Source: Candidatus Binatia bacterium (GTDB lineage Bacteria > Desulfobacterota > Binatia > Bin18). Taken from it: a stretch of DNA of 40,886 bases. Position 1 is the stretch's first letter, and every line of letters begins with the position of its first letter. The notes under the pieces are model-generated. The model had not been told where the DNA came from and did not search any database. It saw only the letters and a list, made by a program, of their open reading frames with translations. Shown here piece after piece: positions 3,425 to 7,992 of the stretch. The translations under genes and the position numbers were made by a program. The DNA lies in NCBI GenBank assembly GCA_963666315.2, contig CAXXHG010000012.1, positions 1-40,886 on the forward strand, given 5' to 3'.

Positions 3425-4576
3425 CTAGGCACCCAAGACCAGGCTGCACTGCTCGGCCATGATGCCGCCATTGCCATTCACATAACCGATAGCAGCGTCT
3501 TTGATCTGCCGATCTCCTCCACGGCCCATAAGCTGGCGGGCCGCCTCGATGACATGGCTCATGCCACCCGCCAGACCCGGCTGGCCGAAGGACAGTTGCC
3601 CACCGTGCGTATTGCACGGGAAGTCGCCCGCGTAGGACAGGTCGTGCTCTTCAACAAAGCGACCACCCTCACCCTTTTCACAGAACCCGGCATCTTCCAG
3701 CGTGACGATAACGGTAATAGTGTAACAGTCATAGGGCTGCACAAAGTCCATATCCTGTGGTGTAGTTCCAGACATCTGAAAGGCCGCTTCTGCAGCAGGT
3801 TTGACTAACGACGTTGTTAGGCTGCGCGCGTGGGTAATGCTCGAATGTCCGCCAGCTTCACCAGCACCAAGCAATACAACCGGTTTGTTTGGACTATCTT
3901 TCGCCTGTTCCGTGCTGGTAACAATGAATGCCCCACCGCCTGTACATGGACTGACAATCTCAAGCAGGTGTAAGGGATCGACAATCATGCGAGAATTCAA
4001 TACATCATCGATCTCTATTTCTTTGCTTCCAAACAGTGCGCTTGGATTTTTGCACGCACTCTTACGCTGATCCACCGCAACCTTGGCCATTTGTTCGGCA
4101 GTGGTTCCAAACTCGTGCTTATGGCGTTGGGCGATCAGCGCATAACCAGGATTAGCCGCGATTAATCCATACGGAGCATCGAATTCAGCCTCAATACTTG
4201 GGAACGGTGGCATTTGGCGAGCCCGCGCTCTCCGGTCACCGAGCACACACAGCACCGTATTACACATGCCGGCTTCAATGGCTGCAGCGGCACGCCAGAC
4301 CATACCCGCAGCAGAGGCTCCGCCGAGTTCTACCAGGTCAAAATACTTGGGTTGGATTTGCAGATAGTCGACAACAACCGATGGAAACAGCACGCTATAA
4401 TCACTCAGCGCCCAGCCGGTGAGCAGTCCGTCAATATCGCCCTTTTCCAGACCGGCATCGACAATCGCCTCACGGGCCATATTGGCGATAATACCCAGCG
4501 GTGTCATATCGCCCGCCCCTTTTTGTGGTGCCATTTCGGCAAACCCAGAGATGGCGGCTTTTCCTTTAATGGTCAT
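3425..4576 (-). CDS. SCP-x/nonspecific lipid-transfer type thiolase-fold protein lacking the nucleophilic Cys
   Basis: Thiolase fold with 'ELGGAS' at the Cys position, 'YDCY' and 'NTHGGQLS'; GGAGG SD upstream. Confidence 0.85.
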   Translation of the reverse strand: MTIKGKAAISGFAEMAPQKGAGDMTPLGIIANMAREAIVDAGLEKGDIDGLLTGWALSDYSVLFPSVVVDYLQIQPKYFDLVELGGASAAGMVWRAAAAIEAGMCNTVLCVLGDRRARARQMPPFPSIEAEFDAPYGLIAANPGYALIAQRHKHEFGTTAEQMAKVAVDQRKSACKNPSALFGSKEIEIDDVLNSRMIVDPLHLLEIVSPCTGGGAFIVTSTEQAKDSPNKPVVLLGAGEAGGHSSITHARSLTTSLVKPAAEAAFQMSGTTPQDMDFVQPYDCYTITVIVTLEDAGFCEKGEGGRFVEEHDLSYAGDFPCNTHGGQLSFGQPGLAGGMSHVIEAARQLMGRGGDRQIKDAAIGYVNGNGGIMAEQCSLVLGA

Positions 4577-4772
4577 ACTTCCCCTCCTATGGACGACAAA
4601 CGCCCATTCTTATAGCGCAGTCGACAGATGGGGGAAAGGAAAGGGTAGAATATACGGGGCGCCTTACGCCTGGATTAGGTCCGCCTACTGTTTTGTGTGG
4701 ACCGTCATGAGCCTATCGTATCTGGTATTCTTCAACCTTGAGAATCGTATACTTATGTGCGAGGCTTCAGGA

Positions 4773-4991
4773 GTGACTGGAGCCGAGTTTATTCGCCGGA
4801 TTCGGAGAGCTGCTCGAATGCACAGCGAGGAAGTCCATTTTGAAACGCGGCCAGGAAAAGGGAGTCACAGCCGACTTTATTACGCCGGTCGCTTCACAAC
4901 CGTGAAAGATCGTAAGAAAGAGATTGGACCCGGCTTGCTCCGGAAAATGCTCGCCGACCTTGGTTTAAAAAGAGATGATATTGAGGAGTAA
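4773..4991 (+). CDS. hicA: HicA family mRNA interferase toxin
   Basis: 72 aa basic protein with 'GKGSH' catalytic motif and 'EIGPGLLRKMLADLGL'. GTG 4773 has GAGG 8 nt upstream; ATG 4755 is an alternative start. Confidence 0.85.
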   Translation: MTGAEFIRRIRRAARMHSEEVHFETRPGKGSHSRLYYAGRFTTVKDRKKEIGPGLLRKMLADLGLKRDDIEE

Positions 4992-4997
4992 TGAACG

Positions 4998-5432
4998 ATG
5001 AGTGCCTTCAGTTATCCTGCCAGTGTCAAAATCGACTCAGCCGGATTTTATCTGGTGACCTTTCCCGATGTCCCGGAGGCTGGAACTGATGCAGAAACCC
5101 GGGACGAAGCGTTGGGAGAAGCAGTCGATTCTTTGATCGCGGCGCTGGGCGGATATCTTCACGCGCGCAGGGCAACTCCTCAACCGTCAAAGGCAAAACG
5201 AGGGCAGATGATTATTGCTTTACCGACCCTAGTTTCTGCAAAGCTCGCGCTCTACGCAGCCATGCGTGAGGCTGAGGTGACCAATGTTGAACTGGGTAGG
5301 CGACTCGACATCAGTGAAGGTGCAGTTCGGCGATTACTCGACCTTGACCATCGTTCCCATATCGGACAAGTGGAAGCAGGCCTTCAAGCCCTAGGCCGTC
5401 GCCTTATGGTCGAAGTCCAAGCGGCTGCGTAG
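4998..5432 (+). CDS. hicB: HicB family antitoxin with C-terminal HTH
   Basis: 'YLVTFPDVPEAGT...EA' HicB N-domain plus XRE-like HTH 'NVELGRRLDISEGAVRRLLD'; 6 nt after hicA. Confidence 0.9.
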   Translation: MSAFSYPASVKIDSAGFYLVTFPDVPEAGTDAETRDEALGEAVDSLIAALGGYLHARRATPQPSKAKRGQMIIALPTLVSAKLALYAAMREAEVTNVELGRRLDISEGAVRRLLDLDHRSHIGQVEAGLQALGRRLMVEVQAAA

Positions 5433-5448
5433 CCACAAAGAGGCGTCA

Positions 5449-5746
5449 TTAGTGGTGATACCGAGCTTGCAAGAAATCGAGCCGATCTGCGCTTACCAGA
5501 TAGACGAGGCGATGTTCTTGAGTCAGACGGCGAGACCACGTACCAGAGGCCAGGTATTTGAGAGGTTCTGGCTTTCCGATTCCAGAGAAAGGGTCACGAA
5601 AGATTGCTTCAACAAGGTCGAGGGTTCGTAGGGCGACTCGTCGATCAGTTTCAACCCAATAACGGAGGTCTTCGCGGAACTCAGGGTGGAATACAGCGTA
5701 GACGTTCTCCTTCTCTCGAAGGAGAACGTCTACGCTTTTTTGCCAA
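5449..5746 (-). pseudogene. yoeB: Txe/YoeB family toxin with no in-frame start (frameshifted pseudogene or recoded gene)
   Basis: Manual translation of 5697->5449 gives AVFHPEFREDLRYWVETDRRVALRTLDLVEAIFRDPFSGIGKPEPLKYLASGTWSRRLTQEHRLVYLVSADRLDFLQARYHH*. There is no ATG/GTG/TTG in this frame back to TGA at 5790-5788. The candidate TTG at 5746 is in another frame and stops after 21 codons. Confidence 0.85.
5695..5741. terminator. Perfect 19-bp inverted repeat with 4-nt loop; followed by a T-run on the + strand (intrinsic terminator-like)
   Basis: AGCGTAGACGTTCTCCTTC-tctc-GAAGGAGAACGTCTACGCT (5695-5736), with T6 at 5736-5741. The repeat is certain; terminator function is inferred. Confidence 0.6.
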
Positions 5747-6017
5747 GTCCGACCTCTTCCCGGAATTCGTCTATCCCTTGGGGTCGCTCAGTGCGAGCCC
5801 TCGCCCGGTCCAGCGCCCGGAGTAAGCGCTCAGCATTCTTTGGAGATCGAAGAAGATGGGCCGTCTCAGCGAGACTCGCGAGCTCCTCCGCAGAAATGAG
5901 GGCAACATCTTCGCCCCCCCGCCGACTAATAACGACAACTTCTTGATTCTTCGTGACCTCGTCGCAGAGCCGGGCGAAATTTGCCCGGGCATTTGTGTAT
6001 GTCGTATGGATCGCCAT
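5730..6017 (-). CDS. yefM: Phd/YefM family antitoxin
   Basis: 'TYTNARANFARLCDEV...VVISRRGGEDVALIS...ETAHLLRSPKNAERL'; ATG at 6017 (the ORF track extension to 6137 is not needed). Confidence 0.9.
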   Translation of the reverse strand: MAIHTTYTNARANFARLCDEVTKNQEVVVISRRGGEDVALISAEELASLAETAHLLRSPKNAERLLRALDRARARTERPQGIDEFREEVGLGKKA

Positions 6018-6041
6018 AAGCTGACTCAGCGGATCTTTCCC

Positions 6042-6058
6042 GTACAGGAGTCCTGCAC
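6042..6058. promoter_or_regulatory. Palindromic putative YefM operator
   Basis: GTACAGGA-G-TCCTGCAC (8-bp arms, 1 mismatch) about 25 nt upstream of yefM; resembles the TGTACA-core operators of yefM-yoeB. Confidence 0.5.
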
Positions 6059-6076
6059 ATAACAGATTGCTTCTCA

Positions 6077-6631
6077 TCAAGCTACAAAGAGTCCGATCCT
6101 TACGATACTGGTCAGGGTCTGGAAAAACGTTAGGCATCCAGTGGTGGGCAGTACACAGGCATGTGAACGTCTACCCTTTGTGGTAAAACTCGACGTAAAA
6201 ACGGACAGAGGAACAGGCTGGACGGAATGGGCAACCTCAGGAATAACGATACCGGCATGAGCGGAATCTAAGACAAACGTTTTTCCTAATGGCTGTGCGA
6301 TAGAGTAGCTGAGTCCGCCCTCCAAGACGTGAATCTTGGCCCATACCCCAGCTTTAGTTGAATGGGACAAGGTGAGCGCTGTGGGAACTGAGTCCGCATC
6401 GAACACGGCTGTTTTCTTGTAGGGGATAAGATTCTGGGGCAACTCCAGCTCTTCGCAGCGTACACAGTTGAGCATCACTCCGAGTTTTGATTTTCGGCCT
6501 TCTTCACTCGTCGTCCATGCACGATTTTCAAACGGCGGATTATGCCGCACATGCTGCCCGTGACCACAATCCAGGTCTGCCACACAGCCGTTTTCCGGAT
6601 CAAGGTGGAAAGCCACGATTTGACGCTTCAT
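6077..6631 (-). CDS. DUF3565 + DUF1971 (TehB N-terminal-like cupin) fusion, probably frameshifted near the C-terminus
   Basis: 'LDCGHGQHVRHNPP...LNCVRC' followed by 'YKKTAVF...VP..L...HSTKAGVWAKIHVLEG'. The expected end 'VRFYVEFYHKG*' (stop 6173-6171) lies in a different frame after about 6210. Confidence 0.7.
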   Translation of the reverse strand: MKRQIVAFHLDPENGCVADLDCGHGQHVRHNPPFENRAWTTSEEGRKSKLGVMLNCVRCEELELPQNLIPYKKTAVFDADSVPTALTLSHSTKAGVWAKIHVLEGGLSYSIAQPLGKTFVLDSAHAGIVIPEVAHSVQPVPLSVFTSSFTTKGRRSHACVLPTTGCLTFFQTLTSIVRIGLFVA

Positions 6632-7992
6632 TCGCTCGCCCAGATCTTGCCCGGATTCAAAATACCCTGGGGGTCAAAGAGCTGCTTCACACCCTTCATC
6701 AATTCCAGCGCAGGACCATGTTCTTGTGCGACATATTTCTGGCCGCCCAGGCCGATACCGTGTTCGCCGGAGGCAGTGCCACCTATGGAAAGGACAAAGG
6801 CAACCATCTCATCTTTGGCTTGATTGGCAGTTGCCCAGCGGTGTGTATCAGCAGGGTCTTCGCGCAATAATGCATGCAGAATGCCGAGACCCGCATGTCC
6901 AAAGGTGTGCAGGACAACGCCGTGTCGTTCCGCAATAGCGTAACTTTCCTGGATTACGTCGGGCAGCCGGGAGATGGGGAAGCCCATGTCGGTCCGAATT
7001 GTTTTGGCCTGCGGATTGAGCGCCTGAATCGCACGAGTTGTGAAGTGGCGAATGTCCCAGGGATTGCGTTTATCGGGCAGGACAATCAGCGTTCCTTGGT
7101 GTTCTTCACACAGCGTGTGGGCGGTCTGAAAAACCTCAGCCACAGAACTCTCAGTGCCATGCACCTCAATAAATAGAGACGGGTGCTCCTCTAAACCAAA
7201 GTCCTGAAAACGATTGAGGGCTGCTATGCAGCGCCTATCGAGAAACTCCACGGCGGCAAGATCGACACCATAACGCATCATGGTCACGATAGCCGTGACC
7301 GCAGCCTTTTCGGACGGAAATGTGAATGCGCCTTGTCTACGTCCGTGCGGGAGGCCGACCAGGGATAGAGTGAGTTCGGTCGCGATGGCCAGGGTGCCTT
7401 CGGACCCGACTAGCAGCCCGAGCAGATGATAGCCGGAGGACGTTTTTCGACTGCGCGTGCCAAGCTGGAGGACTTCGCCTGTACCAGTCACGACCGTAGC
7501 GGCTTTGACGTGATCGCGCGTCGCACCGTATTTGACCGAATAAATGCCACTTGCATTATTCGCCACCATACCGCCTATCGTGGCAACGTCGGCACTACCG
7601 CCGGGCGACGGCGGGAAAAACAAGCCGCGAGATTTCAGGTGTTCGTTCAAGTCATTGTACACACTGCCCGGCTGAACGGTGACCTGAAGATCCTCAACAT
7701 GCACGGTCAGGATCCGATCCATCCGAGACAGATCCAGCACGATTCCGCCTCGAACGGGAATAGGATTTCCTTCTAAACTGGATCCCGCCCCACGCGCGGT
7801 AAGCGCGATATTTTTTTCATAGGCGCAGCGAACGACCCGACTGACTTCTGCTGTCGTCAGCGGCCAGACAACAATATCAGGCAAAGAAGGCGGACAGGCT
7901 GATTCATCGTGTGCGGCACGCTCGAGGTCGGCCTGCTGGGTTGATACCCGATCAGGAGAAAGAAGCGCCGTCAGATTATCGGGAAGGGCCAT
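6628..7992 (-). CDS. FAD-linked oxidase, D-lactate dehydrogenase/GlcD family
   Basis: 'RGAGSSLEG', 'ATIGGMVANNASG', 'GSEGTL', 'FGHAG', 'SGEHGIG', 'LNPGK' motifs. Confidence 0.88.
   Translation of the reverse strand: MALPDNLTALLSPDRVSTQQADLERAAHDESACPPSLPDIVVWPLTTAEVSRVVRCAYEKNIALTARGAGSSLEGNPIPVRGGIVLDLSRMDRILTVHVEDLQVTVQPGSVYNDLNEHLKSRGLFFPPSPGGSADVATIGGMVANNASGIYSVKYGATRDHVKAATVVTGTGEVLQLGTRSRKTSSGYHLLGLLVGSEGTLAIATELTLSLVGLPHGRRQGAFTFPSEKAAVTAIVTMMRYGVDLAAVEFLDRRCIAALNRFQDFGLEEHPSLFIEVHGTESSVAEVFQTAHTLCEEHQGTLIVLPDKRNPWDIRHFTTRAIQALNPQAKTIRTDMGFPISRLPDVIQESYAIAERHGVVLHTFGHAGLGILHALLREDPADTHRWATANQAKDEMVAFVLSIGGTASGEHGIGLGGQKYVAQEHGPALELMKGVKQLFDPQGILNPGKIWASE

Follow-up and report, generated by a model that had tools for sequence, protein, structure and literature searches.

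Can a toxin gene that has kept its coding body yet lacks a start codon still be expressed, and how would it have come to this state? The question is raised by a yefM-yoeB toxin-antitoxin locus on the minus strand of contig CAXXHG010000012.1 in the genome of a Candidatus Binatia bacterium (GCA_963666315.2); the whole stretch of DNA analysed, 40,886 nucleotides (nt) long, is referred to here as the window. In this locus, the antitoxin gene yefM is followed by a yoeB body in a different frame, with a perfect palindrome at the junction of the two. Most likely, we are dealing with an ordinary yefM-yoeB module whose toxin was recently disarmed whereas its antitoxin was kept. Template switching during replication appears to be the cause, and the toxin is presumably unexpressed.

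The yefM-yoeB junction

The antitoxin gene extends from an ATG at 6017 to a TAG at 5732-5730 (5730..6017, minus strand) and, in an intact frame, encodes a Phd/YefM family protein of 95 amino acids (aa) that matches PF02604 with an E-value of 1.9e-17 (63.2 bits, cut-off 29.8) and adjoins the toxin on the upstream side. Of 37 positions with a conservation of at least 85% among 165 relatives, this protein retains 35, the deviations being F14 and F85. The yoeB body occupies 5694-5452 on the same strand, with its stop at 5451-5449, and consists of 81 codons counted from a Val (82 with the preceding Ala), free of internal stops. It covers profile positions 1-79 of the 80 in PF06769 (E-value 3.2e-32, 110.8 bits, cut-off 27; 109.8 bits in a genome-wide profile search) and includes the GKPEPLK, WSRR and ARYH motifs. 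The same two Pfam families, with the antitoxin encoded first, make up YefM-YoeB of Escherichia coli, Axe-Txe, and RelJ-RelK/Rv3358 of Mycobacterium tuberculosis, and the window body can be aligned end to end with the solved chains of YoeB and RelK (E-values 1e-22 and 1e-21). Unlike its counterparts in these systems, the window toxin is start-less, lies in the -1 rather than the +1 frame relative to the antitoxin gene, has a His in the position of Tyr84, and is preceded by a junction palindrome of 19 base pairs (bp).

The toxin frame is -1 (that is, +2) relative to yefM and is open upstream as far as a TGA at 5790-5788, a stop located 96 nt upstream; a scan of the frame back to this TGA yielded no ATG, GTG or TTG. 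The end of yefM reads GGC AAA AAA GCG TAG, so that the Lys-Lys of YefM is encoded by a run of six A residues (A6; 5736..5741, minus strand), which is also the slippery site proposed for recoding and, read on the plus strand, the T6 tail of a terminator-like site. The last yefM codons further contain CTTGGC, the TTG of which (5744..5746, minus strand) would be the ancestral toxin start, here out of frame with the toxin body. The frame that it opens is a remnant of 21 codons ending at a TGA at 5683-5681 (5681..5746, minus strand); over the initial 15 codons, it is colinear with the N-terminal extension that the toxins of relatives carry.

The palindrome covers 5695..5736 on both strands, with 19-bp arms at 5695-5713 and 5718-5736 and a 4-nt loop at 5714-5717. 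In the stem (5736-5718 with 5713-5695), which takes the final A of the A6 run as its first base and encloses the yefM stop, there are 19 Watson-Crick pairs and no G-U pairs and, accordingly, the stem is equally stable on both strands: the folding energy is -36.5 kcal/mol for the minus strand and -35.1 kcal/mol for the plus strand (z scores of about -9.8 and -9.6, respectively), and none of 200 shuffled sequences was as stable. In the minus-strand RNA, the loop (5717-5714) is GAGA, that is, of the GNRA type. These findings bear out what an earlier note on this DNA had described, namely an undamaged YoeB body without an ATG, GTG or TTG in frame, a -1 toxin frame open across the junction from the GGC AAA AAA GCG UAG end of the yefM mRNA, and a perfect stem with a GAGA loop that starts at the last A and buries the yefM stop.

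An obvious concern is that errors in sequencing or assembly created the offset or the palindrome in what is actually a normal yoeB with a TTG start. Palindromes and homopolymers are prone to error, the genome is a draft made up of 47 contigs, and in G009, a second assembly of the same genus, yefM is off by one G. Nevertheless, the junction is identical in G009 (99.7% identity), and contigs from three DNA runs of different studies carry this same junction, free of insertions and deletions. Two of these contigs, X5 (5641-6200) and X9 (5526-5981), span both the junction and the G run in yefM with no letter changed, inserted or deleted; the third, X2, which is possibly from the source sample, spans the whole stretch. 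Moreover, the stretch is present in 20 run rows from 17 studies, all labelled marine. The earlier note had raised assembly error over the junction as a doubt; such an error is ruled out, and the shifted form is confirmed as real by the contigs of X2, X5 and X9, none of which has the TTG at 5746 in frame with the toxin. This comparison was made with contigs, which lose rare variants, so that a minority in-frame allele could escape it. The probability that an artefact accounts for the locus is negligible.

The difference within yefM concerns a G7 run in codons 33-35 (5914..5920, minus strand), in place of which G009 carries G8; the contigs of X2, X5 and X9 are all indel-free with respect to G7. 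The G8 would shift the frame of yefM in G009, unless it is a homopolymer error. The differences between the window and G009 are distributed as a mosaic, with none in 3943-4960, 14 in 4961-6573 and 54 in 6574-7530, which suggests recombination near 6570 in this pair. The complete identity of yoeB between the two was considered as a sign of selection and rejected, given the mosaic divergence and the approximately 2 differences expected locally.

The ancestral start and the origin of the palindrome

Relatives of the locus were collected from three sources: 61 genomes of the group (the window genome included; 11 with a match), genome contigs (the best 80 of 511 matches) and metagenomes (the best 80 of 85 matches to YefM, with a top identity of 77% at the amino acid level). 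Two loci with a partial antitoxin match (L012 and L013) and two duplicates of the G024 and G009 loci (L014 and L015) were left out. Among the 168 loci, window included, six were dropped for want of a toxin and two for want of the toxin's N-terminal portion, which left the window, G009 and 158 relatives; these loci were not de-duplicated and are mutually related.

Measured from the antitoxin stop, the frame offset of the toxin core is +1 in 132 of the 158 relatives, +2 in 21 and 0 in 5. All 21 relatives with the +2 offset possess their own in-frame ATG or GTG. An in-frame toxin start located upstream of the antitoxin stop was found in 125/158, typically a TTG within a conserved GGnCTTGnn, sometimes an ATG, and in several loci this TTG is the sole possible start. 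Starting at the TTG yields a toxin extension of 5-23 aa that is rich in Lys and Arg (125/158). Thus, the yoeB genes of this clade normally begin at a TTG within the last yefM codons, in the +1 frame. A GTG preceding FHPEF was also considered as the family start and rejected, this codon being GTA, GTT, GTC, ATA, ATC or yet another one in many relatives. A TTG hidden in the last codons of the antitoxin gene means that intact toxin genes of this kind can easily be read as start-less or be annotated too short. Altogether, an in-frame start is present in 155 of the 158 relatives and missing in three (L061, L091 and L125). A stop interrupts the N-terminal extension in two of the three, and L091 is truncated as well; all three probably represent independent losses of the toxin.

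With the loci of its own clade, the window shares the GGnCTTGnn motif, the Lys-rich overlap and a colinear segment of 45 nt. The CTTGGC is invariant in 8/8 aligned loci, and the distance from the TTG to GAACGT is 45 nt in the window as well as in G034, G028 and G036, the three nearest full-length relatives (72-69% identity). By contrast, GAACGT and TTYCAY are separated by 10 nt in the window but by 9 in these three relatives. The junction is thus colinear with those of relatives, and it is the lone extra base within this 10-base segment (5692..5701, minus strand) that makes the TTG frame end after 21 codons. Part of this segment lies in the outer right arm of the palindrome, which is the exact complement of the GCG-TAG of yefM.

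The relatives likewise set the palindrome apart. The longest perfect stem at the same junction is 3-7 bp in 155 relatives compared to 19 bp in the window, and the window has a per-base folding energy of -0.525, compared to a mean of -0.265 (standard deviation 0.09) for the relatives, one of which equals the window value through an imperfect structure. The clade is accordingly characterized by a toxin read from a TTG or ATG (125/158) and by short stems, and the window by one extra base and a long perfect stem. A repeated or mobile element was rejected as the source of the palindrome: it is single-copy in the genome, a search of which returned nothing beyond the locus and its inverted self-match, and it cannot be an inserted element because the length of the segment is conserved with relatives.

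A stem made entirely of Watson-Crick pairs, together with a length that is conserved save for one base at the end of an arm, fits a template switch at the level of DNA. We infer template switching as the cause. In the lineage of the window, 42 bases of the junction would have been turned in situ into the perfect 19-bp palindrome, likely through one or few template-switch events during replication in which one arm was copied from the other. The outer right arm would have gained one base as the palindrome formed; with this base, the frame of the TTG would have come to stop after 21 codons, leaving the YoeB body without a start codon. The C-terminal catalytic Tyr has additionally been replaced by His. 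The resulting T6-tailed hairpin would terminate plus-strand transcription coming from the convergent hicAB genes and, in the sense RNA, buries the end of yefM.

The template-switch mechanism of quasi-palindrome mutation has been described (PMC8794818, PMC7202029), and such switching can make perfect stems in a single mutation event (PMC8794818). The mutations known from E. coli hotspots and the window have in common Watson-Crick arms, clustered changes and a one-base change at an arm end; the window repeat is perfect and derived, with clustered changes and a length change of +1, all as compared with relatives at 69-72% identity. A difference from the quasi-palindrome cases is that the nearest relatives with a junction, 69-72% identical, offer no evident quasi-palindrome as an imperfect precursor. 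If the proposed origin is correct, the locus would be a clean natural case of a long perfect palindrome that arose in place within overlapping genes, where one change would both silence a toxin and create a terminator-like hairpin.

Toxin damage, related copies and possible recoding

Of the 36 core positions with at least 90% conservation in 150 complete relatives, the toxin body deviates at a single one, the last. The last residue is Tyr in about 99% of these relatives and His in none of the 150; in the window it is His, encoded by CAC (5452..5454, minus strand). In the alignment with a PDB structure (2a6q_E), this residue corresponds to Tyr84 of E. coli YoeB, and Glu43, Arg62 and His80 of the window protein correspond to Glu46, Arg65 and His83. 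Hence the catalytic set Glu46/Arg65/His83/Tyr84 is incomplete in the window: the first three residues are kept and the fourth is His. In E. coli YoeB, Tyr84 positions the mRNA and lends stability to the transition state; activity is lost in Y84A and impaired in Y84F (PMC3814384). The sequence therefore points to a second lesion in the toxin, a change to His of the equivalent of Tyr84, which is needed for activity.

The usual order of decay in modules of this type is that the toxin is lost first and the antitoxin is retained. In a congener (G024), the syntenic locus, with flanks of 80-88% identity, contains a yefM with two in-frame stops and a yoeB with deletions of 198 nt and 4 nt that still terminates in a Tyr codon; therefore, the change from Tyr to His is younger than the split from G024. 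The window genome itself has 4 matches to PF06769, none of which is an intact toxin gene that could be started. One of these, on another contig (L176:1500-2027, minus strand), is a second yefM-yoeB pair with an ATGA overlap. The yefM of this pair (1749-2027, 92 aa) is intact; in its yoeB, a TAG (1617-1615) replaces the Glu of GKPEPLK, that is, the catalytic Glu46 position, and the end of the sequence is still RYHY. In addition, there is a 53-aa YoeB truncation that ends after GKPEPLNHN (L178:1513-1674) and a 27-aa C-terminal YoeB fragment (L179, near 1500-1580). The open reading frame (ORF) beside the truncation (1714-2142 in L178) presumably corresponds to the C-terminal part of a tyrosine recombinase. 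The window locus can accordingly be considered a degenerate new member of a well-known family, subject to ordinary toxin-antitoxin decay.

The earlier note had favored a different scenario, in which -1 slippage on the A6 run, stimulated by the stem, would yield a fused YefM-YoeB protein of roughly 190 aa and thereby set the proportion of toxin to antitoxin; the ribosomes translating yefM would be stalled by the stem. Several features of the junction are compatible with this proposal. No stop interrupts the -1 frame between the A6 run and the YoeB body, which is undamaged, a highly stable, GNRA-capped hairpin follows the A run, and after the slip the second Lys tRNA would re-pair perfectly on AAA. 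The -1 sites of dnaX and of IS3-family elements likewise combine an A-rich Lys run, a stable stem-loop and an open -1 frame. Furthermore, natural YefM-YoeB gene fusions with the domain order of the proposed product are known, 5 from prokaryotes and 2 from eukaryotes (PMC11980606). These fusions, however, are single ORFs, whereas the window has two parts in different frames, and yefM and yoeB share one open frame in none of the 158 relatives, all 5 same-frame loci having the antitoxin stop in between.

The comparison with relatives goes against slippage. The -1 offset, the hairpin and the missing start occur together in 0/158 relatives and are shared only by the 99.7%-identical G009; relatives have the homologue of the TTG at 5746 in frame and no perfect palindrome, the very state that the note had named as refuting its proposal. 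A run of A6 or longer is found in the junctions of 17/155 relatives, all 17 with in-frame starts; one of them, G034, has the identical GGCAAAAAAG with an in-frame TTG and without the stem. Occurring as it does in relatives with normal starts, the A6 run is therefore an ancestral by-product of overlapping Lys-rich frames. The site itself is also atypical. The dnaX and IS3 heptamer is A_AAA_AAG, whereas the zero frame of the window, GG C_AAA_AAA GCG, does not conform to the canonical X_XXY_YYZ, and the first tRNA would have to re-pair on CAA. The stem begins 0-1 nt after the site instead of after the customary spacer of several bases, although a stem of this length could still resist the ribosome part-way. 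By our estimate, 14 codons without a stop, as found from the A6 run to the core, would arise by chance in roughly one of two cases. Moreover, the toxin that would be produced is altered at a catalytic residue, and its orthologs and paralogs are decaying. Among the papers listed for frameshifting in toxin-antitoxin systems, none reports such a case, judging by titles and the beginnings of abstracts. Programmed frameshifting is thus highly improbable, and about as little can be said for its weaker form, a low-frequency -1 slip yielding a self-neutralised YefM-YoeB(Tyr84His) fusion. Were it true, a two-gene addiction module would have become a recoded single-chain regulator, and the gap in the RNA-library contig discussed below would reflect strong RNA folding. 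The simpler explanation that the earlier note offered as an alternative, namely that an event perfecting a palindrome knocked the TTG-initiated toxin out of frame, is the one favored by the extra base and the family norm. The locus illustrates that an A run, a hairpin and an open -1 frame are insufficient to call recoding without conservation.

Low-level production of the toxin could also be envisaged through loss of an A from the A6 run at transcription, a +1 shift, or reinitiation at a non-canonical codon. Removal of one base between the TTG at 5746 and the core would restore the frame of the family, and AAGGAG, a strong ribosome-binding motif, is located in the right arm about 13 nt before the core. 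However, six A residues are short for appreciable transcriptional slippage, and the AAGGAG is locked inside the 19-bp stem. The toxin frame offers no ATG, GTG or TTG in 5787-5695 and, from the yefM stop to the core, no CTG, ATT, ATC, ATA or ACG either, and conservation lends these routes no support. Expression by any of them appears highly unlikely.

Transcription across the hairpin and the neighboring genes

Under the favored explanation, a disarmed toxin next to a kept antitoxin, the hairpin would have acquired a role on the opposite strand. The stem and the T6 run form an intrinsic-terminator-like site detected by a consensus scan (5695..5742, plus strand), the first such site downstream of a hicB-like antitoxin gene that is convergent with yoeB (4998..5432, plus strand). 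With 19 pairs, 10 of them G-C, a loop of 4 and a T-rich tail, it is the largest site in 4300-6700, and the arrangement by which terminators are recognized, a stem-loop directly followed by a U run, is present on the plus strand. On the minus strand, where the tail is UGUAUUCC and poor in U, the scan called no terminator. The hairpin, then, is probably a transcription terminator and insulator, which plausibly stops read-through from hicAB from proceeding antisense into yefM. A plus-strand promoter for an antisense RNA was not found in 4300-6700, and a comparison with known RNA families gave no member, the only match, to the SR6 antitoxin, having an E-value of 0.84 and, with 20.6 bits, falling short of the gathering score of 55.

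A single contig from an RNA library (X15; 373 nt, depth about 5) covers 5498-5706 and 5750-5913 and omits the 43 bases in between (5707..5749), where the TTG, the A6 run and the greater part of the stem are located. The simplest reading of this gap is a jump of the reverse transcriptase across a very stable hairpin, but it may also be a genuine deletion allele. As read from the coordinates, the joined form would not bring yefM into frame with the toxin.

Several observations weigh against a decaying toxin silenced by template switching. The locus is present in RNA libraries, with six RNA rows containing 21-30% of the sampled words, and contig X15 spans both genes, so the toxin remnant may still be transcribed. 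Apart from the change of Tyr to His, the toxin body is undamaged, with 81 codons, no stop and 35/36 conserved positions, and the -1 frame is open across the junction; such a body would fit a very recent pseudogene and a gene under selection equally well. For position 84, the losses of activity cited from PMC3814384 concern Ala and Phe rather than His. With regard to the origin of the palindrome, no quasi-palindrome is evident in the junctions of the nearest relatives (69-72% identity), and neither the group genomes nor the best 80 matches of each scan include a relative, apart from G009, that keeps the junction at more than 72% nucleotide identity; the nearest junction relatives are too distant to reconstruct the pre-palindrome state and, with it, the route of template switching. 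The window genome and G009 share a recently diverged segment and count as one evolutionary observation. Finally, the consensus scan behind the terminator function proposed for the hairpin gave 4 sites in all compared to 2.3 +/- 1.4 in shuffled sequences.

The product of the hicB-like gene matches HicB_lk_antitox (E-value 9e-05) and HicB-like_2 (E-value 2.2e-04), in both cases below the Pfam cut-off. A hicA-like domain (HicA_toxin, 28.1 bits, cut-off 27) is encoded just upstream of it, within 4419-4991 on the plus strand. The ORF annotated there is 190 aa long, has the HicA domain confined to residues 141-183 and overlaps a thiolase-like gene on the opposite strand (3425-4576); the true hicA is probably much shorter. 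On the other side of the module, an ORF that unites DUF3565 and DUF1971 domains (6077-6631, minus strand) is located directly upstream of yefM on the same strand. The yefM start lies 60 nt past the stop of this ORF, and the two may be co-transcribed.

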